Assembly: GCA_035538015.1 (NCBI GenBank) | Contig: DATLLC010000042.1 | Coordinates: forward strand, 6,450-70,449 | Source of the DNA: Vicinamibacterales bacterium | GTDB taxonomy: Bacteria; Acidobacteriota; Vicinamibacteria; Vicinamibacterales; UBA2999 | Direction of reading: 5' to 3' | DNA length: 64,000 nt | Shown: positions 1,714 to 60,440 of the stretch, in pieces | How positions within the stretch are numbered: the first letter of the stretch is position 1 | Layout: each line of letters begins with the position of its first letter | Notes under the pieces: generated by a model | The model's input: only the letters and a program-made list of their open reading frames with translations | What the model was told of the DNA's origin: nothing | Database searches by the model: none | Program-made: the position numbers and the translations under genes

Positions 1714-2430
1714 ATGGCCCCCCGCGCTCACTGGCAATCCCTCCTGGAAGTGGTCCTCTGTTCCGGTTTCCCGACGCAGCTCGTCCTGACCGGGGTGGCC
1801 CTCATGGCGGGGCTTCGGCCGATGACTGGTGGGGGAGGATTATCCCTGCCATTCGTGGCCGCGGTCTCGGCGGCCGACACCGTCCTGCTCATTGCGCTCG
1901 TCCTCTGGTTTCTGCACATTCGAGACGAGTCACCCCAAGCGCTCTTCCTTGGTGTTCGCCCGATTCTGGCCGAGATGCGGCTCGGATTGCTCCTCGCGCC
2001 CCTCGTTGTGATCTTCATGAGCGGCGCGATCTTCTGGCTCCGCCAACTGCTGCCGAACCTGCACACGGTGCCTGAGAATCCGTTCGAGGCGCTCGCGCGC
2101 TCGCCGGCCGGCGCCTTTGCGCTGCTGCTGGTGGCCATGGTCGCCGGCGGCATCCGCGAAGAGATGCAGCGGGCCTTCCTGCTGCACCGCTTCCGCACCG
2201 ACCTCGGGGGTGCCGCCATCGGGCTGCTGCTCACGAGCGCGGCGTTCGGCATCGGCCACCTCGTGCAGGGATGGGACGCAGTCCTGGTCACCGCGGCGCT
2301 CGGTGCCTTCTGGGGTGCGCTGTTTCTCGCACGCGGCAGCATCCTCGCCGCCGTTGCCAGTCACGCGCTGGCCAACGGGACGCAGGTGCTGATCGCGTTT
2401 TTGCAGAGACCTGAGGTGTTGGGGTCTTGA
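1714..2430 (+). CDS. CPBP family intramembrane glutamic endopeptidase (CAAX protease-like)
   Basis: 238 aa polytopic membrane protein with the motifs REEMQRAFLLHRF, FGIGHL and SHALANG typical of the CPBP/Abi family. Confidence 0.85.
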   Translation: MAPRAHWQSLLEVVLCSGFPTQLVLTGVALMAGLRPMTGGGGLSLPFVAAVSAADTVLLIALVLWFLHIRDESPQALFLGVRPILAEMRLGLLLAPLVVIFMSGAIFWLRQLLPNLHTVPENPFEALARSPAGAFALLLVAMVAGGIREEMQRAFLLHRFRTDLGGAAIGLLLTSAAFGIGHLVQGWDAVLVTAALGAFWGALFLARGSILAAVASHALANGTQVLIAFLQRPEVLGS

Positions 2431-2479
2431 GGTCTTGGGGGCTTGGGTCCTGGGCTTGGGGCTTGGGTGGGGCATGGGT
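2415..2479. repeat. G-rich degenerate heptamer array (unit GGKCTTG, about 9 units) spanning the CPBP stop codon to the next gene's stop
   Basis: Read directly: ggtgttg gggtcttg aggtcttg ggggcttg ggtcctg ggcttg gggcttg ggtgg ggcatg ggtca. There are eight runs of 3 or more G within 58 nt. Confidence 0.75.
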
Positions 2480-2952
2480 CACGGATCGAAGATGGTGATC
2501 TGAGCGCGGCGACGCAGATCGCTCACCCAGTCCGCGATCTGATCTGGCCGGCGATCGTCGGCGGGGAAGCGCTGCTGCACGTAGGCCGCCACGCGAAGGT
2601 CGTCTCTGACCCAGCTGCGCAGACGCTCCGGCGTGAACCCGCCTGCCGCCAGCACCCCAGCCAGCGCCGAATCTCCACCAGCCCGATGCGTGGCCGCCGC
2701 GATCGCGGCCACGACTTGTGCCTCGGACGGCTCCGGTGGTTGATACCGTTCGGCCTCGCGGATCATCAACTCCCGATCCACGAGCCCCTGTACCATCGGA
2801 CGGTCGACGGAGGTCCCCTCCACCAACCCCAGTGCCAGCGCCGTGCGGGCGTCGGAGAGCGTCACGGTACGGCCGGACACGATGGCGAGCGTGCGATCGA
2901 TGATCTCGGCGGGTTGCGCCGCGAGCAGGAAGGCGAGGAGGAATCCGATCAC
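2479..2952 (-). CDS. Small periplasmic protein, SurA N-terminal-domain-like (putative chaperone)
   Basis: 157 aa with an N-terminal hydrophobic signal/anchor. It starts 2 nt after the bamA stop, the position usually held by skp. The similarity to the SurA N-domain is recalled, not tested. Confidence 0.55.
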   Translation of the reverse strand: MIGFLLAFLLAAQPAEIIDRTLAIVSGRTVTLSDARTALALGLVEGTSVDRPMVQGLVDRELMIREAERYQPPEPSEAQVVAAIAAATHRAGGDSALAGVLAAGGFTPERLRSWVRDDLRVAAYVQQRFPADDRRPDQIADWVSDLRRRAQITIFDP

Positions 2953-2954
2953 GA

Positions 2955-5891
2955 TCAGAACGCCTGGCCCAGCGAGATGTGCACGACCGACGCGCGCTCG
3001 CGGCTGCCGCTGGGCAGCACGCGCGGGTTCACCTTGAAGCCGAGGTCGACGCGGAGCGGGCCGATCGGCGAGCGATACCGCACGCCGAAGCCGGTGGCCA
3101 CCCGCAGTTCGCCGACCTCGATATTGCTGGCACGGCGGAAGACGTTGCCGGCGTCAACGAAGCCGACCAGACCGAGCCCCTTCCAGTAGGGCGCGCGGAG
3201 CTCGCCGTTGAGCACCATGACCCCATTACCGCCCTGCGGGAACCCCTGCGGATCCAGGGTCGCGATGGTGCCGAGCCGATCAAGCGCGAACCCGCGGACC
3301 GTCGTATCGCCGCCGGAGAAGAACCGCTCGGAGGCGGGCAGGTCCTCGACCACGTCCACCAACCGTTCGCCGTCGGCGCCCAGGACCGGATTGCCGTCCT
3401 CGTCCACCCGCGGCAACTCGTAGGCGAAGCCGTGGGCGAGGCCCACACGGGCGCCGCCCGCGACCACGAACCGGCGGCCGGGCAGCCGTCGATAGACGAA
3501 CCCTTGCAGGAACGTCTTGACGAAGCCGACCTCGGAGCCATACGCCCGGGCTGCCACCGAGGCATCCACGCCGAGCACCGTGCCGCGCGTCGGCTCGAGC
3601 ACGTCGTCGCGGGAGTCGCGGAGCACGCCGCCGAAGAACGTCGACAGTCGTACCTGTGGGAAGAGCCGGTCGATCAGCAGTCGATCCTCCGGCGCAATCT
3701 GCTCGTCGAAGATATCGGTGTTCTCGAGCGTGTAGCGTACGGTGGCCGTGAGTCCGACGCCGAATCGCCGGGCGTAGTCGCCGCGGACGCCGACGCGGTC
3801 GAAGGTGAAGCTGGCGCGAATGCCGCGCTCGAGGAAGGCGAGCGCCTGGGCGTCGCCTGGCCGGCCGAACGCGCGCGGCTCGCGGAAGGTGGCGGTCACG
3901 CGATAGTCGTTGAGCCCGTAGCCGCCGGTGTCGGTCGGGTCGGTGCTGTCCACCGCGGGATCGCGCGGTCGTAATGAGGCCCGCGCGAAGAAGCTCAGCG
4001 TGCGGTTCTTGCCCCACAGGTTGCGGCGGCTCACCTCGACGAAGCCGCGGGGCGCCACCTCGATGCGCTCGGTGGCGGGCCCTTCGTCAGCCTGGCGGAG
4101 CCGCCGCCCCACCTCCAGGCCGCCACCGTAGGTGATGGCGGTGGCGGGCGATTCCTCGACCGTCACGAGGAGGTCGCGCAGCGGCGACCCCGACCGTGGC
4201 AGATCGACGATGCGGACGCGGCGAAACAGGCCGAGCTGGCTGACCCGGCGCTGGCTCTCGGCAATCGCCTCGACGCTGAGTGGATCGCCCTGCTGAAGGC
4301 GCAGCTCGCGACGGATGACAGCGGCGTTGGTGCGCTCGTTGCCCGTGATCAGCACGTGATCCACGCGCGACTGCTCGCCCTCGCGCACCAGCCAGACGAC
4401 CGTGGCTCGGCCATCGTCGTCGATCGTCACGGACGGGGCGACGGTGGCCGCAAGGTAGCCCTGGTTCCGCAGGACCCGCTCGAGCGCGTCGCGATCGGCA
4501 TTGACCATCGGCCCATAAAAGGGCCGGCCCGCCGTCAGGCTCAACGCCTCACGAAGCATCGACTCGGGCACCTGGCGGGCGCCCTCGAGGGAGACGAGCG
4601 CCACCGTAGTCTGCCGTCCTTCGTCGATCGTGAACCGGACGTCCACCGGTCGGAAGCGGACCCCGCCATCCGCTTCCTCGGGCAGGACCTCGACCGAGGG
4701 TTTGACGCCGACGCCCTGGTATCCGCGCACGCGATACAGCTCCTCGATCGCAACCGCGATGGCGGCCACGCGGGCGTCCACGAACGCGTCGCCGCGCGTG
4801 AGTTTTACCAGCGGCTCCAGCTCCGCGGGCGGGAGCGTCGCATTGCCGACGACCGAGACGGCGTTCACGCGATGAAGCGGGCCCCGGGTCACCGTGAAGG
4901 TGAGCAGCAACTCGCCGCCGCGCATCTGGCGATCGTAGGGCGCCGTCGCCGTGCGATAGCCGCGCTCGCGCAAGTAGGCCTCGATGTTGCGGCTGCCGTC
5001 CTCGAGTAGATCCTCGTCGGCCGATCGCTCGCGGCGGACCGGGACCAGCGTGTCGCGCGCGTCGTCTGGCACGGAATCGCCCGCGTAGACCACACGCACC
5101 ATCGGTCCGATGTCCACGCGCACCTCGACACTGGCAGTGTGGTCTTCTTCCGAAAACGTGGTCGTCTCGCCAACGGACGCCTGGAAGCGTCCCTGGCCGC
5201 GCAGGTCGGTCTCGTACTCCAGCAACCGCTCCTGCAGCTGGACGCCATCGTACGGACGGCCCGGCTCCAGGCCGAGACGCGACAGGATCCGCGCCTCCGG
5301 TTCGAGCGGCGATCCGACGACGGCCGCGGAGCGGAGGGTGGTGCGCGTGCCGGCCTCGATGCGCAGCGTGAGCGTCACGGCGCCTTCCTCGGACGTCGGC
5401 GTCAGCTCCGGAGACACCACCGCCGCGCGATACCCGTGATCGCGGTAGTACGCCGTCACGGCCGACGCAAACTGCGGCGCCCGTGCGACCGTCGGCTCGC
5501 CGGTGAGGCCCGACTCGATGGCCGCGCGCAGGGCGCGCGACGCCAGATCGCCGCCGCCGGTGGTGGTCGTCCGGACGATCCGCTGAATCGGCCGCAAGAC
5601 CCAGGTCAGGACGACACCGTCGCCATCCGGCGCGGCCGCCGCGCGCAGCCGCACGTCGTCGTAGCGGCCGAGGCCGATCAGGTGATCGATGGTGTCACGG
5701 ACCGGCGCCATCGCCAGAGGCTGGCCGAGGCGCGTCTCGACCAGTTCCAGCACGCCGTCTTCCACGCCGGTGCCCTCGACCGTGCGGACACGCACGTCGA
5801 CGATCGTCTTGCCCAGCCACTGCTCGATGGCCGCCTCGGCTCGGCCGGCAAGCGCCAACAGGCCGGCCAGCAGCAGTGCCCGCCCCCGCAT
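2955..5891 (-). CDS. bamA: Outer membrane protein assembly factor BamA/Omp85 family (POTRA repeats + beta-barrel)
   Basis: The true start is MRGRALLLAGLLALAGRAEA (signal peptide) at 5891, inside the artefactual 1854-aa ORF 2955..8519. The protein has repeated POTRA-like segments and an Omp85 barrel ending ...ISLGQAF. Its ATG overlaps the tamB TGA (ATGA). 978 aa. Confidence 0.9.
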   Translation of the reverse strand: MRGRALLLAGLLALAGRAEAAIEQWLGKTIVDVRVRTVEGTGVEDGVLELVETRLGQPLAMAPVRDTIDHLIGLGRYDDVRLRAAAAPDGDGVVLTWVLRPIQRIVRTTTTGGGDLASRALRAAIESGLTGEPTVARAPQFASAVTAYYRDHGYRAAVVSPELTPTSEEGAVTLTLRIEAGTRTTLRSAAVVGSPLEPEARILSRLGLEPGRPYDGVQLQERLLEYETDLRGQGRFQASVGETTTFSEEDHTASVEVRVDIGPMVRVVYAGDSVPDDARDTLVPVRRERSADEDLLEDGSRNIEAYLRERGYRTATAPYDRQMRGGELLLTFTVTRGPLHRVNAVSVVGNATLPPAELEPLVKLTRGDAFVDARVAAIAVAIEELYRVRGYQGVGVKPSVEVLPEEADGGVRFRPVDVRFTIDEGRQTTVALVSLEGARQVPESMLREALSLTAGRPFYGPMVNADRDALERVLRNQGYLAATVAPSVTIDDDGRATVVWLVREGEQSRVDHVLITGNERTNAAVIRRELRLQQGDPLSVEAIAESQRRVSQLGLFRRVRIVDLPRSGSPLRDLLVTVEESPATAITYGGGLEVGRRLRQADEGPATERIEVAPRGFVEVSRRNLWGKNRTLSFFARASLRPRDPAVDSTDPTDTGGYGLNDYRVTATFREPRAFGRPGDAQALAFLERGIRASFTFDRVGVRGDYARRFGVGLTATVRYTLENTDIFDEQIAPEDRLLIDRLFPQVRLSTFFGGVLRDSRDDVLEPTRGTVLGVDASVAARAYGSEVGFVKTFLQGFVYRRLPGRRFVVAGGARVGLAHGFAYELPRVDEDGNPVLGADGERLVDVVEDLPASERFFSGGDTTVRGFALDRLGTIATLDPQGFPQGGNGVMVLNGELRAPYWKGLGLVGFVDAGNVFRRASNIEVGELRVATGFGVRYRSPIGPLRVDLGFKVNPRVLPSGSRERASVVHISLGQAF

Positions 5892-8800
5892 CAGAACGCG
5901 TGCCTCTTGCGTACTTCGAGCGCGTAGGTGCGGTCCTCGTTCTGCGACAGCACCCACGCCAGCGTCTCGCTCTGGTCGAACTCCAGAAGGATGATCTCGT
6001 CCCGGGTCGAGGACGAGAGACTCCGCGCATAAGTCAGATAGATGCGGTCCGAGATGCGCTTGCCGATCGTGACACGCGCCGAGGGGTTCACATTCAGGCG
6101 GGCCGACTGCTGATAGGGGTCGACCAGCAGCGGCGTGATCTGGAACGAGTCGACGCCGAACGTCTCCTGGACCACACGGCCCACTTCGGCCGACAGCGTG
6201 CCGGTGAGGGCCCGGGTGGCCCGGGCCTCGAGCAGGCGTTGCTGCCTCTCGTTGGGCCGCTGCTGGGCCGCGAGCTCCACGTCGCCGCTCGGCGTGGAAT
6301 CGCTGAACAGCATCGTCAGGATCTCGAGCGGCGGCAACGGCGGATCGGAGGTGAACTCCGGTTGAAGCCGCTCGGTCGTCCCGGCCATCCTCAGCGTCAC
6401 GCGGTAGGTCTGGCCCGGGACACGCACGCGCGTCTCGGCTTCGACATCGAAGAAGGGCTGAAGCCGGTCGGGGTTGGTGAAGTCGAGGCTGCCGCGCGTG
6501 ACGAGGTAACGGCGGCCCTCGAAGCGCACCTCGCCTTGCTCGATATCCACGCTGCCCAGCACCACCGGGCGATCGGAGGTGCCCCGCAAATTCAGATCGG
6601 CGCTGGCCACGATCCGCGCCTGATCGTTGTCGATGTGCAGCGTCGACGGCGCGACCAGGTGTAAGTCGAAGCTGATGGTCCCGGCCACGCGATCGGCCAA
6701 AGCTCCCTCGACGGCGGGGACGACCGCGCTGCTCCCCGCGAAGTCGAACAGCCCGCCGGTCGTATCGAACGGCTGCGACCAGAGCGCATTCTTCACCTGC
6801 ACCAGCCCGCTCAGGACCGGAGCCTGGCTGGGGCCTCGTAGCGCCAGGTCGGCGTCGACCAGCGAGCGCATCCCTTCGGGAAATCGCGGCCGCATGTCTG
6901 TGCCCACCGCCGTGACGTCGAACTCGCTCAACGCATAACCTGAGAGCCCGATGCGGCCGCCGAACGCCACGGCCCCGCCCGCGACGCGCCCCCGCAGTCC
7001 ATCCAGGCGCACACCACTGGCGTTGAAGGTGACGATGCCGTTGAGGGCCTCGAGCGCATGAGGGATGCCGAAGTGGCGCAGCCGCCCGTCGGAGATGAGG
7101 GCCGTACCGGACACGACCGGCGCTTCGGTCGTCCCAGTGATCCGCGCGGCGACTTCCGCGCGCCCCGAGGTCCGCACGTCCGGCAGGAACCCCTGCAGCA
7201 CCGCCAGGTTCGCCGCACCATTGGCCGAGAGCGCCAGCTCCTGTTTCCTCAAGTCCACCGAGCCCGCCAGATCGAGCTCGGTGTCCTCGCCCACGAGACG
7301 CAGCGCTTCGACCTCCAACACCTGCCGGTTCACGCTCAGCGTGATGTTGCCGGCGTTCTTCAGGCTGTAGTCGAAGAACCGGAGCTGCACATCGTCGACC
7401 TGGACGTCGACGCGCAGGGCGTCGGGGTTGTACAGCTCGCCGACGACGCGGACCGCCCCGCTGGCAATGGCCGACGTGAAGGGCGACAACTGCGGCTGGA
7501 ACGCGCGGAGGTACGGGTCGAGCGACGTGTCGGTGATGCGGAAGGACAACTCGGCATCCATTTGATCGGTGAGCGCAATGCGGCCGGTGCCCGACGCGGC
7601 CAGGCGCGTCGACGCCGCCTCGAGCTCGTAGACGAGCACGGTGTCGCGAACCGAGAGCCGCCCCGAGACCTCGCCTACGCCTTCGTCCCCGTAGAAGAGG
7701 TCGCGCACGCCGAACTTCACGTCGTAGCGCGGCAGGTCGAAGGTGCCGCTGCCGGTAGCGGCAAAGTCGACCAGTCCGGTGAACCCAGGCCCGCTCTCCA
7801 TCGCCGCCAGCGCCAGCGTCTCGACGGCCATGCCCCGCGCATCCGCGTTGAAGGAGTAGGCGCCGTTCCAGCCGACGTACGCCGCGCCGGTGACGGTGGT
7901 CCCGCCCTTGAGGACGGTCAGCCCGTCGAGCCTTACCCCGGCGCCTTCGAAGCGCAACGCGGCCTCGCCCTCGGCGAACGGCTCGCCGTAAGCCGTGCCC
8001 TGGGTGATGGCGAGCCGTCCGAAGCCGTACGGCTGCGTGTATTGGCCGTAAAGATGAAAGTCGCCCGAGACCAGGCCATCGAGGTCGTAGTCCTCGAGAT
8101 TGAAGGCTTCGAGAAAATCCTTTACGGTGCGCGATGTCACGCGAACCCGGGCATCGATTTCCTCGCCGCCATCGCGACGCGGATAGCCGAGGGAGAACTG
8201 GCCGCTCACGTCCATGCGCGACGGGCCGGCGCGGATCACCGCGCGGCTGACGTGGGCATAGTTGTTCTCGACGACGAAGTCGCCGTCCACTTCGCCCCAG
8301 GTGACGCCCCACGCACGAATTTCGCCGCCGACGAACCGGCCTTCGATGCGCGGACGCCTGAAGGTCCCCAGCATCACACCGTCGAACCGGCCCACCCCGT
8401 CGATGGGAATCGCCATGGTGCTGGCGCCGAACACCGTCATCAGCCCGGCCAACAGGCGGTCGCTCTCCTGCCAGTTCGTGCTCGTGACGCGGAACGGCAG
8501 CTTGGAGCGCTCGCCCCACGCCGTAGCCCCTTCGAACGTCACATAGGTGTCGGCGGTCGCGAGCTCGCTCGGTTCGAGGCGAATGGCGTCGCCGTCGAAC
8601 CGATAGACGAGCCGACCGCCGATCCCCACCGGGCCGAGCGGCGTGTGGTTGCTGAACGGGCCCACTTCCAACGCCCGACTCTCAGCGGCCTCGGTCGCGC
8701 CGGCCGGCAATCGAGGGCCGAGGACATCGACGCCCGGAGGCGGCGTCACGGCCACCTCGCCGTCCCCCTCGCGCGTTGCGAACTGGCCGGTCGGGAACTC

Positions 8801-9970: not shown

Positions 9971-9974
9971 GGTT

Positions 9975-10487: not shown

Positions 10488-10514
10488 GCGTGAATCCCCT
10501 GCGGCGACTGCGCG

Positions 10515-12026: not shown

Positions 12027-12044
12027 CAGACCGAAACTCTTGCG

Positions 12045-12053
12045 ATTCTATCA
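12045..12053 (-). promoter_or_regulatory. Candidate extended -10 promoter element (TGATAGAAT) for accC
   Basis: The minus strand reads TGaTAGAAT about 18 nt upstream of the accC ATG. The same TGnTAGAAT form occurs upstream of rplU. Confidence 0.35.
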
Positions 12054-12281
12054 CTTAGAGGAGACTGACCGCGCCTGTCCCGGACTCCGCCCGCACCGGG
12101 CAGGCGCAAATTCGGATGCACCACGAATGGGTGGCTCGTGGTGAGATGGGGGATGCGCCTGGGCTCCGGACGATCGGGGTGGCGTCGGGTGACAGCGCCC
12201 CTCATGACCTACCTGCTCGCGGTCGAGGGGTGCGTCGCGGCGGGACGGCCGGTTGCGGATCAACGGGACGAGGGCGTCCGC

Positions 12282-12896: not shown

Positions 12897-13060
12897 GACC
12901 AGACTCGGACCCACGTTCCACGGATCCGCCGGAATTTCGGCACGATGACATCGCGGCGAAGTGTTCGCGTCTCGAACGGCGCTCGAACGCCCGAAACCCG
13001 AGCGAGTGCCGTGGAACGTGAATTGCGTCTTCCCCTGCTGTGGATACGAGGAGGCTCGTA

Positions 13061-45380: not shown

Positions 45381-45450
45381 ATTGATGATTGATGATTGGC
45401 GATTGATGATTGATTGGCGATTGGGCGATTGCGCCATTGCATTCAATTGC
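45381..45450. repeat. Degenerate tandem heptamer array, unit NNGATTG (about 9 units), one orientation only
   Basis: Read directly: attg atgattg atgattg gcgattg atgattg attg gcgattg ggcgattg cgccattg... It begins 17 nt after the radical-SAM stop codon. Confidence 0.8.
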
Positions 45451-45464: not shown

Positions 45465-45748
45465 TCAGGGTTCGCGCGACGCCGTATAGGCGGCGTTCGC
45501 GACCATTGTCGTCGACCGTCAGTCGCTCCACCGCCGCCTGCATGAGCGCCGCCCAGGCGCCCTTCCTGTTACCTGCCTGGAAGTCGAACAGCTGCCGCAC
45601 CGTGTAGCTCGGTGAGCGCCGGCCAGCGGCCGCACGGGCCCGAGGCCTTTCAGGTCCGGCTCCGCGGCCGGCGGCGGCGGGTCGGTCTGCGCCCCAAGTG
45701 CACTCCCGCCGCCGCGATCAACACGCTCGCAACCACACGAATGCTCAT
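45465..45748 (-). pseudogene. Possible frameshifted remnant of a small secreted class-I cytochrome c-like gene (no CXXCH left)
   Basis: AGGAG-N7-ATG at 45748 opens MSIRVVASVLIAAAGVHLG (signal). The coding sense then continues in two other frames (AQTDPPPPAAEPDLKGLGPVRPLAGAH / YTVRQLFDFQAGNRKGAWAALMQAAVERLTVDD / MVANAAYTASREP*). Three 1-nt shifts are needed, two of them at homopolymer runs. Confidence 0.4.
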
Positions 45749-48308: not shown

Positions 48309-48487
48309 CCATTGGTGATTGATGATTGGTGATTGACGATTCATTGAATGATTGGGCGATTGAACCATCGGGCCATTCGTGATTGGCGCCGCCACCCGCC
48401 CAATCGCTCAATCGAATGAAGCATTGCGCCGATCGTCAATCAGCCGATGAATCGCCAGATCATCAATCGCCAATCGTCAATGGTCAA
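48309..48487. repeat. Imperfect palindrome (about 180 bp) built from NNGATTG heptamers (left arm) and CAATCNN heptamers (right arm)
   Basis: Read directly. The arms align in heptad register (GATTG cores pair, variable dinucleotides mostly do not). The element fills the whole spacer between the convergent ADOP and asparaginase genes. Confidence 0.8.
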
Positions 48488-48497
48488 GCGCGCGGGC

Positions 48498-50887: not shown

Positions 50888-50899
50888 GCCGCGATCTTA

Positions 50900-53647
<2,748 letters not shown>

Positions 53648-53684
53648 GTCGCCTCCTTGGGCGATTCAGTATACGCTTCGGCGC

Positions 53685-54260: not shown

Positions 54261-54328
54261 CACCGCCACGAGCCGGAACGAAACAGAGCGCGAATCAGCG
54301 ATCGGAAGGGATCCGCGGGAGGCAATGT

Positions 54329-55048
54329 ATGAACAGACGGCAACTACTGACTGGCGTGCTGGCTGCCCCGATGGCGCTGGGACTCGACCTCGAGGCACAA
54401 GAGGGCGGCGCCCCGGATCCATCGCTCTACATCCCGAAGGCGCACCTGGTCGAGGATCGCGCGTTTCTGCACGACTTCATGGACGAATACGCATTCGTGG
54501 ACCTGGTGACGACCAGCCCGACGTTGCGGATTACTCACATCCCCACGTTCCTGGAGCGAGCCAGCGGACGCTTCGGGACGGTGTTCGGGCACATCTCCGC
54601 CCAGAACCCGCAGCGCGCGGCGTTGGACGGCACCCACCCGGCCGTGATCGTCTTCCGCGGGCCGCATGGCTACATCTCGCCCGCCTGGTACGGCAAGAAG
54701 GACGTGGTCCCAACCTGGAACTTCGCGGTGGTGCACGTGTCGGGCCGGCCGAAGATGATCGACGGGCCGGACGCGACCCGCGCGCTGCTCGCGCGTCTGA
54801 TCCGGAAGTTCGAGACCAAGTCGGGCACGAGCTACGACTTCGACTCGCTGCCCGCCGACTACGTAGCCGGCATGATGAAGGGCATCGTGCCGTTCTCGAT
54901 GGAGATCGACGCCATCGAAGGCAAGTTCAAGCTTGGTCAGGAGCGCCAGGCCGCGGACCGCGACGGCGTGGTCCAACACCTGCAGACCGCCAAGCCGCAC
55001 GAGCGCACGCTACGGGAGTTGACCGAGGCCTTCTACGCAAGGAAGTAG
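54329..55048 (+). CDS. PaiB-family FMN-binding protein with twin-arginine (Tat) signal peptide
   Basis: ATG at 54329 with a GGGAGG RBS. MNRRQLLTGVLAAPMALGLDLEAQ is a Tat-type signal. The body (ISPAWYGKKDVVPTWNFAVVHVSG...IEGKFKLGQ) is typical of the PaiB/FMN_bind_2 family. Confidence 0.85.
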   Translation: MNRRQLLTGVLAAPMALGLDLEAQEGGAPDPSLYIPKAHLVEDRAFLHDFMDEYAFVDLVTTSPTLRITHIPTFLERASGRFGTVFGHISAQNPQRAALDGTHPAVIVFRGPHGYISPAWYGKKDVVPTWNFAVVHVSGRPKMIDGPDATRALLARLIRKFETKSGTSYDFDSLPADYVAGMMKGIVPFSMEIDAIEGKFKLGQERQAADRDGVVQHLQTAKPHERTLRELTEAFYARK

Positions 55049-55127
55049 AGCCAGACTCTGGGTGACCGACCGAAGAGGCGCAATCGGCCAACCAGCGACC
55101 CGTCGCAGCTAGCGGCCCGTAACCGCT

Positions 55128-55322
55128 GAATCGGTATCTGATGATCTCTTGATCGGGTGACGTTGTGATGGATCTGGCGATCGGATGATCTGGTGATCGG
55201 ACGATCATCTGACGGATCTATCTGGGCCGGATAGATCGAGAGATAGATCAGGTCGATCACCAGATCACCAGAGCGATCACCAGATCACCACCTCGAGACA
55301 TCAACAGATATCGTTATCTGGA
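55128..55322. repeat. Imperfect palindrome (about 195 bp) built from NNGATC(G/T) heptamers, centre hairpin GATCTATC-N7-GATAGATC
   Basis: Read directly. Left arm: ...gatctggcgatcggatgatctggtgatcggacgatc... Right arm: ...gatcaccagatcaccagagcgatcaccagatcacca... It lies between the convergent PaiB-like and CoA-ligase genes. Confidence 0.75.
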
Positions 55323-55330
55323 CCACTAGA

Positions 55331-56902
55331 CTAGGCCCTCAGCTTGAAACGCTGGGTCTTGCCCGTGGCGGTCTTCGGCAGGTCGGCCACGAAGTGAATC
55401 CAGCGCGGGCGCTTGTAATCGGCCAGCCGCTCGCGCACGAACTGCTGCAGTTCCGATGCGAGCGACGGCGTGGGCTGGGCGCCGGGGTTGAGGACGACGA
55501 ATGCCTGGGGCTTGACGAGACGATCCTGATCGAGGTGTCCGACCACGGCACACTCGCGCACAGCAGGATGCCCGGTCAGAGCGTTCTCGACCTCCACCGG
55601 GCTCACCCAGATGCCGCCGACCTTCAGCATGTCGTCGGCGCGGCCCGCATGCCAGTAGTACCCGTCGGCATCCTGGTGGTACTTGTCGCCGGTTCGAATC
55701 CAGTGGCCCTCGATCGTCGCCTTGGTGCGTTCATGCTGGTTCCAGTAGCACGCGCAGATCGAGTCGCCCTTGATCAGCAGGTTTCCCACCTCGCCGGTCG
55801 GCACCGGCGCGCCGGCCTCATCGACCAGACGCGCTTCGTAACCGGGCACGATCTCCCCGCTCGATCCCGGCCGGGCACGGCCGGCCCGATTGGCGATGAA
55901 AGTGTGCAGGACCTCGGTCGAGCCGATGCCGTCGAGAATCTCGATGCCGAAGCGCAGCTTGAAGCGATCGAAGAGGGCCGCCGGCAAGGCCTCGCCGGCC
56001 GACAGGGCCAGCCGTACACTCGACAGGTCGAAGTCACGCGCGCCGCCTGACTCGTGCGCGAGCAGCATGCCGTAGTTGGTCGGCACGGAGAACAGCAAAG
56101 TCGGGCAATGACGCTCGATGATCTCGTAGATGGCCGTGGCCGTCGCCGGCCCAGGCCACAGGATGCTCGTGCCACCGACCGACAGCGGGAAGTACAAGGC
56201 ATTGCCCAGACCGTAGGCGAAGAACAGCTTGGCCACGCTGAAGCACCGGTCGCGCTCCGAGATCTCGAGGACGTGCCTGGCGTAGGCCGAGGCGCAAACG
56301 ACCATGTCGTGCTGGAGGTGCACGCAGCCCTTGGGCGGCCCGGTGCTGCCGGACGAATAGAGCCAGAACGCCGCATCGTCCCTCGAGGTTGGCGCCGGGT
56401 CACCGGCGTTCCCGGACTGGGCGATGACCTCGTCCAGCGCAAGCGCGCCGTCGCCAGGTGCCCCGTCCGCAACCAGCACGTGTTCGATGCCACGGCGTTG
56501 CGCGAGCGGAATCGAGTGCCACACCGGCAGCAGCGCCGCGCTCACCACCGCCACGCGGGCCCTGCAGTCGTGCAGGACGTACGCCACGTCGGCGGCCTTC
56601 CACATCGTGTTCACCGGCACCGGCACGGCGCCAGCACGGATGGCGCCCCAGAACCCATAGAAGAACGCCGGGCTGTCGAGGAGCCAGAGCAGGACGCGCT
56701 CTTCCCGCCGCATGCCGAAGCCAGCCTGGAGCGCCTCTCCGACGGCAGCGACGCGCGCGGCCAGTGCGGCGTAGGTGACGCGCTCGGCGCCGCACTCGAC
56801 GGCGATGCGATCGCCACGTCCTTCTCGCAGGTGGCGGTCGACGAAGTAATCAGCGGCGTTGAAGGTCGCCGGAAGCTCCGGCGCCGACCGATCGTCCAAC
56901 AC
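55331..56902 (-). CDS. Benzoate-CoA ligase family AMP-forming acyl-CoA synthetase
   Basis: 523 aa. FNAADYFVDRHLREGRGDRIA N-terminus, AMP-binding motif LYSSGSTGPPKG, and C-terminal KTATGKTQRFKLR. Confidence 0.9.
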   Translation of the reverse strand: MLDDRSAPELPATFNAADYFVDRHLREGRGDRIAVECGAERVTYAALAARVAAVGEALQAGFGMRREERVLLWLLDSPAFFYGFWGAIRAGAVPVPVNTMWKAADVAYVLHDCRARVAVVSAALLPVWHSIPLAQRRGIEHVLVADGAPGDGALALDEVIAQSGNAGDPAPTSRDDAAFWLYSSGSTGPPKGCVHLQHDMVVCASAYARHVLEISERDRCFSVAKLFFAYGLGNALYFPLSVGGTSILWPGPATATAIYEIIERHCPTLLFSVPTNYGMLLAHESGGARDFDLSSVRLALSAGEALPAALFDRFKLRFGIEILDGIGSTEVLHTFIANRAGRARPGSSGEIVPGYEARLVDEAGAPVPTGEVGNLLIKGDSICACYWNQHERTKATIEGHWIRTGDKYHQDADGYYWHAGRADDMLKVGGIWVSPVEVENALTGHPAVRECAVVGHLDQDRLVKPQAFVVLNPGAQPTPSLASELQQFVRERLADYKRPRWIHFVADLPKTATGKTQRFKLRA

Positions 56903-57013
56903 AGGACCTCAGAACCCCTCCAGCGGAGATCTCAGGCTACCCGCGGCTGCCAGCGCGGCGTAGAAAGAGAGGATTCCGAGTCAGCCGCGGCTTCCCCTCT
57001 GCGTCGCTTCGAA

Positions 57014-58222
57014 TCACTTGCCCAGATTCTCGTACCAGCGGACGGCGCCACTACCCCCTGTGCACAGCAGGTCGCTGCGGCGATCGCCGTTCACGTCCAC
57101 GGCCACGCACCCGTTCATCGCGGCGGATTCCTCGATCCGCTGGTACTGCCAGGTCCCAGTCGCCGCATCGTCCGGCGCATAGAACACGTGAACGCCACCA
57201 ATCGGTGCGTTCGGGCTGTTCTGAGACGGCCGGCTGTTGTCGTTGGCCACCACATCGTCACGGCCGTCGCCGTTCAGGTCCACGACGGCCACCTCATGGC
57301 CGCTCACGACCTTGTCGAAGATGACGCGGCGCTGCCACTGGCCACCCTTCTCGGTGTACACGACGACTTCATTGCCGTGCCACGGTTCGACCGACGCGAA
57401 GAACTTGCGGCCGTCCTGCCGGCCGACGCCGACGTCGCTCGCACCCAGGCGCGGCGCCTTCTCGACGTGACCGGCGGAAAGGAGCTGCTTCTCGAACTTC
57501 ATGGTCGCTCCGCTGCCTGACGCGCGATAGACCGCGATGCCCTCGAAGCTCGCCACGAGCAGCTGGTCGCGGGCCCCTCCATCCCACTTCGCCACCCGCA
57601 CACGATGGATGATGCCCGGAATGTCCTCGGTGATCGCGTGACGCGTCCAGTCCTTGGGGCTGTACCAGAACACCGACGCCTTGTCCTGATCGTAGGTGGG
57701 GGCCAGGCCCTTGGGACCGATCAGCGGCGCGTTGACCAGCTCCTCGGTGCCGTCGCCGTCGAAGTCGGCCCAGGCGACGTGATGCGATGTGGGAAATGCG
57801 TCCACGCGCTCCACTTTCCACGGCTGGCGTGGGTCGCCCTCATGCCGGGCGAGCCAGTTCAAGCCCTCGCTCTTGCCTGGAACCATTGCAAACCCGCTCT
57901 GGAAGGCAATCTCCGGTACGCCGTCCTTGTCCACGTCGTGCATCGCCTGGTTCACCACCTGCCGGGCGTCCGGCACGACGATGTGGCGCACCCAGGTGGG
58001 GTTCTCGTACCACGCCACTTCGTTGACCGACAGCGAGTTGGCGACGACGTCGGGCTTGCCGTCCTGGTTGAAGTCGGCGACGGCCACGGCGTAGCCACCG
58101 CGGAAGTCGGCGTCGATGTCGTGAGGGGCGAACCGTACCGGCCCGGCGGCCGGAGCGCCGCTCAACGAGACGGCGAGGGCGAGGGTGGCCAGCCCGCCGG
58201 CGGCCAGGGATGCGTAGGTCAT
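57014..58222 (-). CDS. Secreted FG-GAP/VCBS repeat (beta-propeller) protein
   Basis: Signal peptide followed by repeated Ca-binding-like motifs: DFNQDGKPDVV, DVDKDGVPEIA, DFDGDGTEELV, DLNGDGRDDVV, DVNGDRRSDLL. Confidence 0.85.
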   Translation of the reverse strand: MTYASLAAGGLATLALAVSLSGAPAAGPVRFAPHDIDADFRGGYAVAVADFNQDGKPDVVANSLSVNEVAWYENPTWVRHIVVPDARQVVNQAMHDVDKDGVPEIAFQSGFAMVPGKSEGLNWLARHEGDPRQPWKVERVDAFPTSHHVAWADFDGDGTEELVNAPLIGPKGLAPTYDQDKASVFWYSPKDWTRHAITEDIPGIIHRVRVAKWDGGARDQLLVASFEGIAVYRASGSGATMKFEKQLLSAGHVEKAPRLGASDVGVGRQDGRKFFASVEPWHGNEVVVYTEKGGQWQRRVIFDKVVSGHEVAVVDLNGDGRDDVVANDNSRPSQNSPNAPIGGVHVFYAPDDAATGTWQYQRIEESAAMNGCVAVDVNGDRRSDLLCTGGSGAVRWYENLGK

Positions 58223-58262
58223 GCCCCATCATCGTCATCTCCCGGGGGCTGTCAAGAGCCGG

Positions 58263-58292
58263 TTGTCGGAGCTTTTCCCAACCTGCTAGAGT
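58263..58292 (+). promoter_or_regulatory. Candidate promoter (TTGTCG-18 nt-TAGAGT) placing the TSS at or next to the PQQ dehydrogenase ATG (leaderless?)
   Basis: The -10 element ends 7 nt before the ATG at 58300. No Shine-Dalgarno sequence is present in between. Confidence 0.3.
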
Positions 58293-58299
58293 GTGCGCC

Positions 58300-60303
58300 A
58301 TGCATGCCACCATTCGCTCCCGGGCCGGCCGATTCGGCCTCCTCGCCATCCTCGCCACGGCCGCGCTCCCGCTCTCAGGGCAAAACGGGAACGTGATTTC
58401 GCGCGGCACGCAAGACGGCCAGTGGCCGACCTACGGCGGCGACCTCCAGAGCCGGCGCTACTCGCCGCTCTCGCAGATTGACGCGACCAATTTCGGCAAA
58501 CTCGAAATCGCCTGGCGTTTCAAGACGGAGAACCTCGGGCCGGCTCCCGAGTTCCAGCTCCAGGCCACCCCGCTGATGATGAACGGCACGCTCTACTTGA
58601 CCGCCGGCTCCCGCCGCGCGGCCGTGGCCGTCGATGCGGCCACGGGTGAGATGAAGTGGATGCACAGCATCAACGAGGCTGAACGGGGTGCCGCCGCGCC
58701 GCGGCGGCTCTCGGGCCGCGGCCTCTCGTACTGGAGCGACGGCAGCGAGGAGCGGATCTTCTACGTCACGCCCGGCTACCACCTGGTGGGCCTCGACGCA
58801 AAGACCGGCCAGCGCCTGGCCGGCTTCGGTCACAACGGCATCGTCGATCTCAAGTTGGAGATGGATCAGGAGATGGACCCCGTGAAGGGCGAGGTCGGCC
58901 TGCATGCCGCCCCCATCGTCGCGGGGAACACGCTCATCATCGGCGCGGCGCACGTGGAGGGCGGCGCGCCGAAGAGCCGGACGAACCAGAAAGGCTTCGT
59001 CCGCGGCTACGACGTGCGCACTGGCAAGCGCCTGTGGATCTTCCACACCATTCCGGCAAAGGGCGAATTCGGCAACGACACCTGGGAGAAGGACTCCTGG
59101 ACCTACTCGGGCAACACCGGCGTCTGGGCCCAGATGACCGTAGACGAAGAAAACAACACAGTGTTCCTGCCGGTGGAGATGCCGACGGGGGACTACTACG
59201 GCGGCCATCGCCCCGGCAACACGCTCTTCTCTGAAACCCTCGTCGCGGTGGACCTGACGACCGGCAAGCGCAAGTGGCACTACCAGTTCGTGCACCACGG
59301 CATCTGGGATCACGACCTGCCGTGCGCTCCGATCCTGGCGGACCTCATGGTCGATGGCAAGCAGATCAAAGCGGTGGCGCAGCCGGCCAAGCAGGGCTGG
59401 GTCTACGTCCTGGATCGCATTACAGGGCAGCCGGTGTGGCCGTTCGAGGAGCGGCCGGTCGAAAAAGGCGATGTGCCCGGCGAGCAGTACTCACCGACAC
59501 AGCCATTCGTCACCAAGCCGCCACCGTTCGAGCGTCAGGGCGTATCGATTGACGACCTGATCGACTTCACGCCGGAGCTCCGCGCCGAGGCGGTGAAGCT
59601 GGTGGAACGCTACAAGATCGGCCCAATGTTCACGCCGCCGGTCGTGAGCAAGTGGGAGGGCCCGCTGGCCACGCTGATGCTGCCCAACGTGACGGGCGGC
59701 GCCAACTGGCAGGGCGGATCGCTCGACCCCGAAACGAATATGTTCTACATCTTCTCCAACACGAACGTGGCGGCCCTGGGGCTGGCGCCGGGCGATGGCG
59801 TGAAGTCCGACATGCTGTTCGTGCGGGGCTTCGCCTCCGACCCGGCCGACAAGAGTGGGCGTCCGGGGTTCCCGAATACGACCGTACAGGGGCTGCCGCT
59901 GATCAAGCCCCCGTACGGACGGATCACCGCGCTCGACCTCAACAAAGGGGAGCTCGTCTGGCAGATCGCGCATGGCGACACGCCGGACAACATCAAGAAC
60001 CACGCTGCGCTGAAGGGCGTCAACATCCCGCGCACGGGCCGCCAGGGCCGCATCGGCGTGCTGACCACCAAGACGCTCGTGATCGCCGGCGAAGGCGGCA
60101 TGGCCACCACGCCGAAGGGCCAGGGCGCCATGCTGCGTGCGTACAACAAGGCGACAGGGGATGAGGTGGGCGCCGTATACATGCCAGCGCCGCAGACCGG
60201 GTCGCCGATGACCTACATGCTGAACGGGCAGCAATACATCACGGTGTCGGTGAGCGCGCCGGGCTTCGCGGGCGAGCTGCTGGCGTTCAAGCTGCCGAAG
60301 TAG
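58300..60303 (+). CDS. PQQ-dependent dehydrogenase (glucose/quinate-type 8-bladed propeller), secreted
   Basis: 667 aa from MHATIRSRAGRFGLLAILATAALPLSG. WPTYGGDLQSRRYSPLSQI and repeated W-motif blades. The ORF-track start at 58210 overlaps the divergent gene. Confidence 0.9.
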   Translation: MHATIRSRAGRFGLLAILATAALPLSGQNGNVISRGTQDGQWPTYGGDLQSRRYSPLSQIDATNFGKLEIAWRFKTENLGPAPEFQLQATPLMMNGTLYLTAGSRRAAVAVDAATGEMKWMHSINEAERGAAAPRRLSGRGLSYWSDGSEERIFYVTPGYHLVGLDAKTGQRLAGFGHNGIVDLKLEMDQEMDPVKGEVGLHAAPIVAGNTLIIGAAHVEGGAPKSRTNQKGFVRGYDVRTGKRLWIFHTIPAKGEFGNDTWEKDSWTYSGNTGVWAQMTVDEENNTVFLPVEMPTGDYYGGHRPGNTLFSETLVAVDLTTGKRKWHYQFVHHGIWDHDLPCAPILADLMVDGKQIKAVAQPAKQGWVYVLDRITGQPVWPFEERPVEKGDVPGEQYSPTQPFVTKPPPFERQGVSIDDLIDFTPELRAEAVKLVERYKIGPMFTPPVVSKWEGPLATLMLPNVTGGANWQGGSLDPETNMFYIFSNTNVAALGLAPGDGVKSDMLFVRGFASDPADKSGRPGFPNTTVQGLPLIKPPYGRITALDLNKGELVWQIAHGDTPDNIKNHAALKGVNIPRTGRQGRIGVLTTKTLVIAGEGGMATTPKGQGAMLRAYNKATGDEVGAVYMPAPQTGSPMTYMLNGQQYITVSVSAPGFAGELLAFKLPK

Positions 60304-60351
60304 ACGGCGGTTCTCGAGCTTCTCGGAGTTCGCGGGGTTGCTACGGGCGAT

Positions 60352-60387
60352 GCGTCGGCCGTTCTCGGACGGCCGGCGCTCTTTCCT
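60352..60387 (+). terminator. Candidate intrinsic terminator after the PQQ dehydrogenase gene
   Basis: An 11-bp stem (GCGTCGGCCGT / ACGGCCGGCGC, one G-T pair) with a 6-nt loop, followed by the pyrimidine/T-rich tract TCTTTCCTCC. The T-run is weak. Confidence 0.45.
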
Positions 60388-60390
60388 CCG

Positions 60391-60440
60391 TCCGCACCCG
60401 CCCGCACCTGCCGGCACCTGTCCGCACCTGTCCGCACCTA
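60391..60440. repeat. Five tandem degenerate decamers (TCCGCACCYG-type) abutting or overlapping the stop codon of the CBM9/DUF5916 gene
   Basis: Read directly: tccgcacccg cccgcacctg ccggcacctg tccgcacctg tccgcaccta. Confidence 0.8.

Follow-up and report, generated by a model that had tools for sequence, protein, structure and literature searches.

Degenerate tandem-repeat arrays at gene ends in a Vicinamibacterales genome and its relatives resemble the intergenic heptamer repeats of Xanthomonas and Nostoc

Five conspicuous arrays of short tandem units lie in the stretch of 64,000 nucleotides that we analysed (hereafter the window), and they are probably independent cases of one lineage-wide, satellite-like class of repeats (LSSR), driven by slippage and tolerated at gene ends. 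This is a known kind of array, described in Xanthomonas and Nostoc, that is now seen in a soil acidobacterium. The arrays adjoin gene ends generally and are not found solely between convergent genes.

Methods

The source genome is that of a soil bacterium of the Vicinamibacterales (Acidobacteriota) and has a GC content of 67%. The DNA examined from this genome consisted of the 64 kb window and short flanks. Arrays in the window were detected with Tandem Repeats Finder (TRF) and by direct reading of the sequence. Genes were taken from a codon-based call and, for the spacer near 45 kb, also from the public gene call of a 99.5%-identical contig (L153). The scan of relatives covered 1.25 Mb, that is, 62 related genome loci and the window (genome sample). 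The second sample was made up of metagenome loci, in which a single orthologous hot spot and less reliable gene calls are confounding factors and the spacers are long and probably mis-annotated. Frequencies by spacer class were counted for spacers of 30-400 bp only, and the window was excluded from the counts for the relatives.

Results

Arrays of the window

The arrays and the two hairpins next to them are listed below.

2412..2479, plus strand: direct array of about nine degenerate GGKCTTG units of 7-8 nt (TRF periods 7, 8 and 16), G-rich strand on plus.
45381..45450, plus strand: direct array of about ten heptamers, ATTGATG/ATTGGCG with core GATTG, without an inverted partner.
45475..45501, no strand assigned: ordinary GC-rich hairpin (predicted fold) directly downstream of the preceding array; context only.
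48309..48388, plus strand: left arm of a double array that begins 12 nt past the stop of an ADOP permease gene; about 11 heptamers with core GATTG.
48399..48487, minus strand: right arm of the same double array, CAATC-core heptamers on plus (GATTG on minus), ending 10 nt before the stop of an asparaginase gene.
55132..55225, plus strand: left arm of an octamer array, GATC-containing units GATCTGGY/GATCGGAY.
55229..55321, minus strand: right arm of the octamer array, GATCACCA units on plus.
60352..60379, no strand assigned: ordinary 12-bp GC hairpin followed by TCTTTCCTCC, between the stop of a PQQ-dehydrogenase-like gene (60303) and the 10-mer array; context only.
60390..60439, minus strand: direct array of five 10-mers, AGGTGCGGAC on the minus strand.

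All five arrays had been reported in an initial annotation made from the sequence, and TRF, direct reading, core counts and shuffles agree that they exist and lie far above chance. Core counts within them exceed the window background 10- to 70-fold (Poisson p 3e-6 to 3e-15). In the 62 related loci and the window taken together, arrays occupy about 10% of the spacers of at least 30 bp as compared to about 0.2% after shuffling (62 of 651 real spacers; shuffled spacers give 0-2, about 1). The same arrays recur in the independent metagenome assemblies L073, L153, L154 and L155-L162, and on this basis they are genuine and not assembly artefacts. As in the LSSR class, units of 5-11 nt stand head to tail in copy numbers above chance (TRF, Poisson test and shuffles). 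In three window arrays, periods of 14 and 16 nt outscore those of 7 and 8 nt in TRF. The weaker sixth array proposed earlier at 13552-13673 gave no TRF row and is merely a two-copy GATCAG motif inside small hairpins.

The 2412-2479 array occupies a whole convergent spacer of 48 bp. It includes the final six codons of an Rce1-like protease gene together with the stop (2428-2430), and at the other side it ends at the stop of a 157-aa gene (2479-2481). Of the five, this array alone has canonical G-quadruplex potential. The 60390-60439 array is given as five copies of GTCCGCACCT with 87% matches (TRF), and its first unit runs into the TAG stop of a DUF5916 gene (60438-60440). Both cases bear out the earlier statement that the arrays start at or overlap stop codons. 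The hairpin at 60352-60379 is the more conventional terminator candidate at this junction (60303/60438). Shortly beyond the edge of the window, this species has a further array of the family, with core CGCACC and about 10 units, which takes up a co-directional spacer (L156, 14567-14726).

Only two of the five arrays are palindromic. The arms of 48309-48487 are predicted to form a hairpin of about 85 bp (-82 kcal/mol), and the units of one arm do not mirror those of the other in their order (z -0.9 relative to unit-permuted arms). The whole GATC-octamer double array, octamers and then their complement, spans 55128-55322; its arms are predicted to form a hairpin of about 95 bp, with a folding energy of -122 kcal/mol for the spacer (z -5.8). 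Here the arms mirror each other in unit order (z -5.3) and so point to a genuine inverted duplication. In 85 kb of this one genome there are at least four unit families that are unrelated to one another.

Eight convergent junctions had been counted in the window, and seven of them are indeed convergent, four with an array. The eighth, 45364/45465, is not: we found no minus-strand ORF of at least 30 aa ending near 45465, the codon-based call likewise has none, and the public gene call of contig L153 places no gene inside the 458-bp spacer. The array at 45381-45450 therefore lies between two plus-strand genes. It begins 16 nt past the stop of a radical-SAM gene, so that the order is stop codon, array, then the 45475-45501 hairpin.

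Searches against known element types

Covariance models of Rfam 15 gave no match at gathering thresholds in the whole window, which was one of the checks recommended by the initial annotation, and nothing relevant at E<=1 over the arrays. A tRNA scan found nothing. A terminator scan of window positions 1-60000 reported no array, and the hairpin-plus-U-tract sites in that range were not above shuffles; nor does any array there take the intrinsic-terminator form of a short GC-rich stem-loop followed by a U-tract. In the 64 kb and flanks, the arrays have no conserved imperfect palindrome of 20-40 nt, as REP elements would, and nothing in common beyond a core of 5-7 nt. No RAYT gene was found among the 20 window proteins scanned. 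The array ends are ragged and abut stop codons, unlike the fixed terminal inverted repeats flanked by target-site duplications of MITEs, and strains differ by single units and not by whole elements.

Position relative to genes

Among the window spacers of 30-400 bp, arrays are present in 4/6 convergent, 0/18 co-directional and 0/7 divergent ones. In the related loci, with the window excluded, the corresponding values are 17/78 (22%), 32/310 (10%) and 5/122 (4%), with p 0.012 and 1e-4. The proposed tie to convergent junctions is thus real both in the window and in the 62 related loci, but it is not specific, and by absolute count co-directional spacers hold most arrays. The class rates rise approximately in proportion to how many gene 3' ends a spacer has, and the rate per gene 3' end is about equal (23/212 vs 35/394, p 0.47). 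The scan by intergenic class suggested in the initial annotation gave this bias in the genome sample only; in the metagenome sample, with its repeated hot spot and long, probably mis-annotated spacers, 16% of spacers carry arrays in every class. Divergent spacers, with the fewest arrays in the genome sample, are near that same value in the metagenome sample, where the figure is confounded by the hot spot. Arrays are almost never genic. They are widespread in the 62 related loci, and the case in which they would be unique to this window, considered at the outset, does not apply.

In convergent spacers, 21/23 arrays lie within 15 nt of a stop. Arrays also adjoin gene starts and fill intercistronic spacers. 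Their length ranges from about 25 to 275 bp. Periods of intergenic arrays are mainly 7 nt (41 arrays), 8 nt (23) and 9 nt (7). Genic arrays have periods of 6, 9 or 12 or are GC-only low complexity, and the rare genic arrays of 7 or 8 nt are located at ORF ends or at miscalled starts. Heptamers therefore predominate and units that are not a multiple of three are kept out of coding DNA, as is the case for the LSSR class.

Comparison of strains and relatives

In two of the five arrays, strains that are 99.4-99.5% identical are set apart by precisely one unit of 7 nt. L155 (99.4% identical) carries an additional GGGCTTG (+7 nt) in the 2412-2479 array together with A2474T, and the four other loci across this junction (L156, L157, L158 and L162) match the window there. 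L153 (99.5% identical) has one extra ATTGGCG unit (+7 nt) in the 45381-45450 array, a GGG insertion and one substitution; over 4.3 kb, all three of its indels relative to the window fall inside array spacers. At the 48309-48487 site, both L153 and L154 have a 3-nt deletion at 48305-48307 and two substitutions. The 55049-55330 array is identical in a 99.5%-identical strain (L073), and hypermutability is therefore not uniform.

We also compared orthologous spacers, as had been advised. Position and unit family are kept at 88-94% identity, with a same-family array in the same place and in another copy number (L001/L013, L002/L021/L009, L014/L015). This difference in copy number between related genomes is a further property of the LSSR class. 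At about 76% identity (about 24% divergence), arrays are absent or replaced. The orthologous ADOP/asparaginase junction carries a 200-bp GATTG double array in the window, a 41-bp GGTTCTC array in L010 and plain GC hairpins in L002 and L009; the spacer is just 3-7 bp in L003 and L005, and the genes overlap in L001 and L013.

Polarity, inverted pairs and unit families

In the genome sample, 62/80 arrays (62:18, p 8e-7) have their G-rich strand next to the ORF on its 5' side, and in convergent spacers this G-first polarity amounts to 30:5. The metagenome sample, with its poorer gene calls and hot spot, gave 20:16, which is not significant. A sense-strand G-rich bias near stops, oriented by transcription, was also considered and dropped, since the co-directional skew is only 18:15 (not significant) and the ORF-anchored rule fits. 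A canonical G-quadruplex is possible in 18/82 arrays, and the remainder still keeps the polarity (48:14). Therefore, G-quadruplex formation cannot be the unifying property.

Inverted double arrays occur in about 13/63 array-bearing spacers, two of them in the window, and unit order is mirrored in 5/8 double arrays. Several unit families recur across spacers and genomes, namely GATTG, GATCKG, GGGTTCT, GGGCTTG, AGCCTGA, AGGCAGA and CGCACC. Clustering of families by single linkage on shared 6-mers chained 59/71 arrays into one cluster, and we therefore used only the contrast within and between loci: 6-mers are shared by 31.5% of array pairs from different spacers of one locus as compared to 4.3% between loci. 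Units TGATTGA and TGATC give stops in all frames; this is not a general property, as the AGGCAGA and AGGTGCGGAC families are without any. Along an array, units drift in gradients (L071, L002).

Discussion

Origin of the arrays

Of the four explanations offered by the initial annotation, a by-product of replication slippage is the best supported, by way of the whole-unit indels in near-identical strains. Slipped-strand mispairing over one or two units would make the arrays grow and homogenise them. A whole array may be duplicated in inverted orientation (template switching) to give an inverted double array, after which each arm would slip separately. The distribution would then mirror the places that tolerate expansion which shifts frames or disrupts promoters. 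Where the genome is compact and its spacers are tiny, an array consequently looks as if it occupied everything from one stop codon to the other. Purely local slippage accounts neither for the recurrence of the same unit families in different spacers and genomes nor for the [G-rich][C-rich] polarity.

Relation to published repeats

The closest published counterparts are the tandem G-rich heptamers GGGAATC of Xanthomonas and GGGGA(C/T)T of Nostoc PCC 7120, in runs of 2 to about 26 units (Rehm 2015, PMC4692102). These are strongly intergenic and rare between divergent ORFs, often overlap a stop codon or lie within 50 nt of it, and are nearer to the 5' ORF (about 28 nt) than to the downstream ORF (160 nt); their G-rich strand is near the ORF on its 5' side in any gene orientation (PMC4692102). 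Convergent-orientation pairs form inverted repeats, 70-75 per genome, and in related genomes such as Xcc and Xac the position is kept and the length is variable (PMC4692102). Location, stop proximity, polarity, inverted pairs and length variation are all found again in the Vicinamibacterales arrays. However, the latter belong to another phylum, have several unit families per genome instead of one dominant family, often have units of 8-10 nt, and are degenerate rather than near-perfect. Rehm 2015 stresses a G-quadruplex-forming unit with four or more G3 tracts (PMC4692102), whereas such a unit is found in just 18/82 Vicinamibacterales arrays and 1/5 in the window. The G-quadruplex requirement is a trait of the published examples and not of the broader LSSR class.

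As reported by later papers, Mrázek 2007 found that heptanucleotides are the most abundant or most over-represented LSSR, a class with units of 5-11 nt, in large high-GC genomes of non-pathogens, and that LSSR stay outside coding DNA except where the unit length is divisible by three (via PMC4679880, PMC4692102); polymerase slippage was proposed as their cause (via PMC4679880). As far as these secondary accounts go, the Vicinamibacterales period spectrum, genic/intergenic split and unit indels agree with that class, although LSSR are defined there as near-perfect runs and our arrays are degenerate. We found no mention of Acidobacteriota arrays in the accessible literature on such repeats. Mazel et al. 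reportedly described in 1990 the cyanobacterial STRR (short tandemly repeated repetitive) heptanucleotides, which form several families per genome and are tandem and non-coding. The arrays share with STRR the several families and the tandem non-coding arrangement, and differ in lineage and unit sequences. The TAACTGA direct repeats of marine Beggiatoaceae are intergenic heptamer arrays with one unit sequence (MacGregor 2015, PMC4679880), mainly just upstream of start codons and almost never inverted (PMC4679880). In contrast, the Vicinamibacterales arrays have many unit families, common inverted pairs and a gene-end location. Units with stop codons occur in both (TAACTGA; here TGATTGA and TGATC), and such arrays can therefore overlap a gene end by only a few units.

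Alternative explanations

The arrays could instead be selected terminators or 3'-end stabilisers without a U-tract, with long repeat-unit hairpins that stop polymerase from either side and protect mRNA 3' ends; with the G-rich arm ahead of the C-rich one, the RNA:DNA hybrid inside the polymerase would be pyrimidine-rich and weak at the time of hairpin closure. We consider this unlikely as a general account. In its favour, the arrays, like intrinsic bidirectional terminators, come immediately after stops, and they are enriched at gene 3' ends; two in the window form strong predicted hairpins readable from both strands. The G-first polarity in convergent spacers and the conservation at 88-94% identity point in the same direction. 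Hairpin-plus-T-run terminators are not above shuffles (4 vs 7.2, 9 vs 8.8 and 5 vs 7.6). However, the arrays are without a U-tract, and the stems would be 85-95 bp as compared to 5-15 bp in intrinsic terminators. In the window, three arrays out of five lack an inverted partner and form no hairpin, with structure not beyond chance (z -0.7 and -0.3), and two of these three adjoin an ordinary GC hairpin that could terminate in their place. The same junction in relatives has no array or even overlapping genes, arrays also abut gene starts and fill intercistronic spacers, and the arms of 48309-48487 are unmirrored. A terminator role is plausible only for the two hairpin-forming arrays: RNA that reads through these palindromes from one side or the other would form hairpins of 85-95 bp, and in a genome lacking hairpin-plus-U-tract terminators they probably impede read-through, as a side effect and not as their raison d'être.

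It is improbable that the arrays are the product of a dedicated polar process common to distant phyla rather than of passive slippage. In such a process, repeats may be added to the 3' ends of intergenic breaks that are then rejoined. The direct outcome would be G-rich strands that face away from the ORFs on both flanks, and inverted arms of the same family that are not unit-by-unit mirrors. Alternatively, U-tract-independent bidirectional terminators or insulators may have been built from repeated units.

REP/BIME/REPIN elements of proteobacteria are extragenic and hairpin-forming, and are over-represented behind the final gene of operons and in convergent spacers; they can stabilise upstream mRNA and are copies of a single imperfect palindrome (about 20-40 nt) that a RAYT transposase disseminates. 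A non-autonomous mobile family of REP/REPIN or MITE kind, internally repetitive and inserting at gene ends, would account for unit families common to different spacers and genomes, for the mirrored inverted arms, and for a placement like that of REPs. We regard it as very improbable, since the arrays share neither a full-length consensus (the window arrays have no common palindrome) nor fixed ends, vary in unit number and widely in length, show unit gradients, differ between strains by single units and not by presence or absence of an element, and fall into at least four unrelated families. Moreover, about 20 of some 53 window proteins were scanned and none is transposase-like or RAYT-like. 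The REP/MITE-like family put forward earlier is poorly supported on these grounds.

Very improbable, too, are binding platforms for a DNA- or RNA-binding protein, in which regularly spaced cores such as GATTG, GATC or CGCACC would attract a regulator, a nucleoid protein or a factor that depends on methylation. The cores show fewer changes than the 2-3 variable positions (pooled chi-square p 0.003, from only three indel-free arrays), and the 10-mer CGCACC family has a helical period and a second locus just upstream of a sensor-kinase gene, but many unrelated cores stand side by side in one genome, there is no known candidate protein, arrays appear and vanish at a junction with no change in the neighbouring genes, and copying of a variant unit by slippage gives the same mismatch skew, so that the core/variable pattern is not diagnostic.

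Implications

Slippage-driven arrays tolerated at gene ends thus remain our preferred reading, and nothing in these arrays shows a new biological mechanism. Cyanobacterial heptamer arrays near gene ends have reportedly been known since 1990. Those of Xanthomonas and other large GC-rich genomes were reported between 2007 and 2015, in part as summarised by later papers (PMC4692102, PMC4679880). The Acidobacteriota case makes the phenomenon phylogenetically broad, with boundary position, G-strand polarity, inverted pairs and unit-number variation in common. It weakens the G-quadruplex explanation of the published cases, as there are many unit families here and most are unable to form a G-quadruplex; the polarity rule is a constraint for any future mechanism. 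In soil metagenome-assembled genomes, the arrays inflate spacers, supply or overlap stops, and can mislead gene callers and terminator predictors, and their unit-number polymorphism could serve as a strain marker.

Gene Calls and Convergent Junctions

The genes of the window (GC content 67%) were called with a self-trained codon model, which yielded 53 genes, with convergence at seven junctions. A search of 185,579 species genomes placed the closest relatives among Vicinamibacterales/Acidobacteriota metagenome-assembled genomes, with 74-77% protein identity. The initial annotation had counted eight convergent junctions, of which seven are borne out by the gene calls, but there is no convergence at 45364/45465. 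An ORF search found no minus-strand ORF of 30 aa or more ending there, the self-trained caller placed no gene in 45365-45822, and the matching stretch of the 99.5%-identical contig L153 is also gene-free in the public gene call.

Convergent junctions (gene calls) and arrays (Tandem Repeats Finder, TRF) in window coordinates.
2431-2478, convergent junction
13538-13669, convergent junction
29675-29710, convergent junction
40665-40702, convergent junction, gene overlap
48298-48497, convergent junction
55049-55330, convergent junction
60304-60437, convergent junction
2412-2479, array
45381-45439, array
48311-48341 and 48427-48487, paired arrays
55171-55206 and 55255-55290, paired arrays
60390-60439, array

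The flanking genes are ordinary housekeeping and metabolic genes (Rce1-like protease, carboxyltransferase, radical SAM enzyme, asparaginase, FMN-binding protein, benzoate-CoA ligase family protein, PQQ-dehydrogenase-like protein and DUF5916 protein), and an ADOP-family duplicated permease is encoded at 45823-48297. The 38-nt overlap at 40665-40702 involves a double-zinc-ribbon/phosphoribosyltransferase (ComF-like) gene and the thymidylate kinase gene. The ADOP and asparaginase genes overlap likewise in the relatives L001 and L013. Such overlapping 3' ends leave no space for any terminator there in this lineage.

Arrays of the Window

Direct reading agrees with the unit sequences originally assigned to the five arrays. 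Compared to the remainder of the window, core motifs are enriched 10- to 70-fold in the arrays (Poisson p 3e-6 to 3e-15). A weaker sixth array proposed at 13552-13673 gave no TRF row, and its GATCAG motif occurs in two copies only, inside small hairpins. Only two of the five arrays are palindromic, those in the spacers 48298-48497 (fold -82 kcal/mol, z -2.8) and 55049-55330 (-122 kcal/mol, z -5.8). The arrays at 2412-2479, 45381-45450 and 60390-60439 are direct. When folded, the spacers of the 45381 and 60390 arrays are no more structured than expected by chance (z -0.7 and -0.3), and ordinary GC hairpins (45475-45501 and 60352-60379) lie beside two direct arrays. In three window arrays TRF scored a period of two units (14 or 16 nt) higher than that of one unit, as expected if copying takes one or two units at once.

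The minus strand of 48459-48487, in the right arm of the GATTG array, holds a sigma-70-like match (TTGACC, 17 nt, GATGAT; 9/12, a consensus match only); arrays with TTGA/GATGAT-like units are prone to generate matches of this sort. At 19409-19440, 35 nt upstream of a proteasome-family (HslV-like) gene (18829-19374), lies a perfect 2 x 16-bp tandem duplication (AGGGCCCACAGAGACA), which the initial annotation had also pointed out; it is not a short-period array.

Survey of Spacers in Related Loci

We surveyed the window and 62 genome loci (1.25 Mb in total) with one gene caller and one TRF setting (periods of 5-12, 3.5 copies or more). Retrieval was by the ADOP protein, so the loci were not selected for arrays. 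Arrays were found in 62 of the 651 spacers of at least 30 bp, compared to 0-2 after shuffling. The periods of intergenic arrays are 7 (41), 8 (23) and 9 (7). These arrays are excluded from coding DNA, where the arrays detected had periods of 6, 9 or 12 or were GC-only low complexity.

Array-bearing spacers of 30-400 bp (convergent; co-directional; divergent).
62 genome loci without the window: 17/78; 32/310; 5/122
Window alone: 4/6; 0/18; 0/7

Arrays are rare in divergent spacers of the genome sample (without the window, Fisher p 1e-4 for convergent versus divergent and 0.012 for convergent versus co-directional). However, the rate per gene 3' end is equal in convergent (23/212) and co-directional (35/394) spacers (p 0.47), so that the association is with gene ends and promoter-free DNA and not with convergence itself. 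The original observation is largely right, with an excess at convergent junctions both in the window and in the genome loci, but its reading in terms of convergent junctions was too narrow. The regular expression of the initial annotation matched 11 times in the 1.25 Mb, six times in co-directional spacers, four times in convergent ones and once at a contig edge, with no divergent and no truly genic match.

A further sample, 433 kb from 35 metagenome loci, was taken around homologues of the ligase gene. Heptamers were again dominant (23/38 arrays). The class bias failed to replicate in this sample (16% in each class), and no significant polarity was seen. The sample has two confounders: a single spacer immediately upstream of the ligase gene carries arrays of differing units in many genomes, and there are long spacers that probably hide uncalled genes. 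The ligase spacer is a positional hot spot whose sequence is not conserved: it carries short-period arrays upstream of benzoate-CoA-ligase-family genes in many unrelated soil metagenome contigs, with a different unit each time (GGCTCCC, AATGCAA/TTTGCAT, CTCTGTGA, TGGTGCGAT, GAGGACACA and others). The window's own copy (56903-57013) has no array.

Hot-spot arrays (contig, coordinates).
L075, 447-492
L077, 9887-9975
L081, 9885-9981
L088, 9896-9924
L096, 4922-4984
L109, 9910-9940
L111, 9828-9887
L128, 9933-9976

Polarity and Inverted Arms

Each array was oriented to read G-rich and the nearer flanking ORF was scored. In the genome sample the 5'-side ORF was nearer in 62 of 80 arrays (p 8e-7; co-directional 31:9, convergent 30:5), whether the ORF boundary was a start or a stop. 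Spacers consequently read G-rich array, then C-rich array from either strand. The polarity is not relative to transcription, since the sense-strand skew in co-directional spacers is 18:15. Canonical G-quadruplex potential was present in only 18/82 arrays, and the polarity is equally strong without it (48:14). L071 is one of the few loci with a double array in the reverse order. In loci L002 (18648-18807) and L021 (18161-18229) an array that is C-rich on the sense strand reaches directly to the called ATG of a gene on the minus strand, and nothing resembling a Shine-Dalgarno sequence separates the two; translation there begins without one, or else the start has been miscalled.

The units of one arm of double arrays were permuted and the sequence refolded. 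Mirror order was significant for the 55049 array (z -5.3) and for those of L025, L056, L071 and L004, and not for the 48298 array (z -0.9) and L017. Most double arrays are thus true inverted duplications of a whole array; non-mirrored arms may have diverged since by independent slippage or have had a separate origin.

Strain Differences and Turnover

Same-species contigs (exact-protein look-up) compared to the window.
L155, 99.4%, window 1-12950: 2412-2479 array with one more GGGCTTG unit and one substitution
L156, L157, L158 and L162, 99.2-99.9%, parts of 1-12952: no difference at the 2412-2479 junction
L153, 99.5%, 45364-49676: 45381-45450 array with one more ATTGGCG unit, GGG inserted and one base substituted
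L153 and L154 (48265-50825), 99.5-99.6%: left edge of the 48309 array altered by a 3-nt deletion and two substitutions
L073, 99.5%, 49781-59631: 55049-55330 unchanged

L153 and the window differ by three indels, each of them in an array spacer. L155 also has single-base insertions at ~3683 and ~8026 (window coordinates), the TamB-like (5891-9970) and Omp85-like genes being split in its public gene call. Long-read assembly error is the probable source of these two insertions, an explanation that is unlikely for the 7-nt unit insertion of the same assembly. At 88-94% nucleotide identity (L001/L013, L002/L021/L009, L014/L015) array position and family are kept, and copy number and unit variants differ. 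At the ADOP/asparaginase junction the window carries a GATTG double array of 200 bp; the orthologous junction in relatives of ~76% identity has a GGTTCTC array of 41 bp, plain hairpins of GC, spacers of 3-7 bp or genes that overlap. Whole units are gained and lost, and arrays persist with resizing and then turn over, which together is micro- or minisatellite behaviour.

Unit Families

The cores GATTG, GATCKG, GGGTTCT, GGGCTTG, AGCCTGA, AGGCAGA and AGAAGTCG recur across spacers and genomes, and 6-mers are shared by 31.5% of array pairs between spacers of one locus compared to 4.3% between loci. Local slippage alone is insufficient for this recurrence. Along single arrays the unit drifts, from AATCACT to AATCCCTG in L071 (17272-17546) and from GGGGCTT through GGGTCTT and GAGTCTT to AGCCTGA in L002 (18640-18875), so that neighbouring families intergrade. 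The 10-mer family of 60390-60439 recurs in the same species, just beyond the window start, as about ten degenerate CGCACC-core units (L156 14567-14726; L155 14575-14734) occupying the entire co-directional spacer from an amidase gene to a sensor-kinase gene and reaching the ATG.

Origin of the Arrays

The arrays are a known phenomenon in a new lineage. Rehm et al. 2015 (PMC4692102) found that GGGAATC units in Xanthomonas and GGGGA(C/T)T units in Nostoc form repeats that are intergenic, frequently overlap the stop codon, lie on average 28 nt from the 5'-side ORF and 160 nt from the downstream ORF in any gene orientation, and occur between convergent (16%) and divergent (7-8%) ORFs. Each genome has 70-75 convergently oriented pairs forming inverted repeats, position is retained and length variable between Xcc and Xac, and no function was found. 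The arrays of our lineage share this anatomy. They differ in having several unit families per genome, many units of 8-10 nt, degenerate copies and mostly no G4 potential. Full-text literature searches turned up no account of such arrays from Acidobacteria. According to the summaries in PMC4679880 and PMC4692102, Mrázek et al. 2007 found heptanucleotides to be the most strongly over-represented class of long simple sequence repeats, typical of large genomes with high GC, and proposed polymerase slippage. Any novelty would sit in what causes the polarity and the recurrence of families.

We propose that an array is born in a minimal spacer, is homogenised and resized by slippage, and is eventually lost; tiny ancestral spacers would explain why it fills the gap and abuts stop codons. 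Slipped-strand mispairing is most likely the engine, inverted duplication most likely gives double arrays, and selection against frameshifts and promoter disruption probably confines arrays to gene ends.

The two predicted 85-95-bp hairpins probably hinder read-through from either side. As a general explanation of the arrays, however, a selected terminator function is unlikely, since direct arrays exist, ordinary hairpins adjoin arrays and some relatives have no spacer at the junction at all. The 10-nt period of the CGCACC family equals that of the DNA helix, which makes phased protein binding conceivable for that family; at least four unrelated families within 85 kb argue against one sequence-specific factor or one mobile element. 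The suggested REP/MITE-like element family is very unlikely, given the lack of a shared palindrome (REP/REPIN) or fixed ends in the 64 kb and flanks covered and the single-unit polymorphism.

Rfam scans of the window identified the arrays with no known RNA, and none of the arrays qualified as a canonical terminator in a scan of the first 60 kb, where hairpin-plus-T sites are not above chance. The sole strong site of the window is 29714-29742 (12 pairs, then CCTTTTTCGC), at the convergent junction after a sigma-54 activator gene and overlapping the 3' end of a tyrosine-recombinase (XerC/D-like) ORF; TRF places a 2.2-copy 14-mer at 29686-29716.
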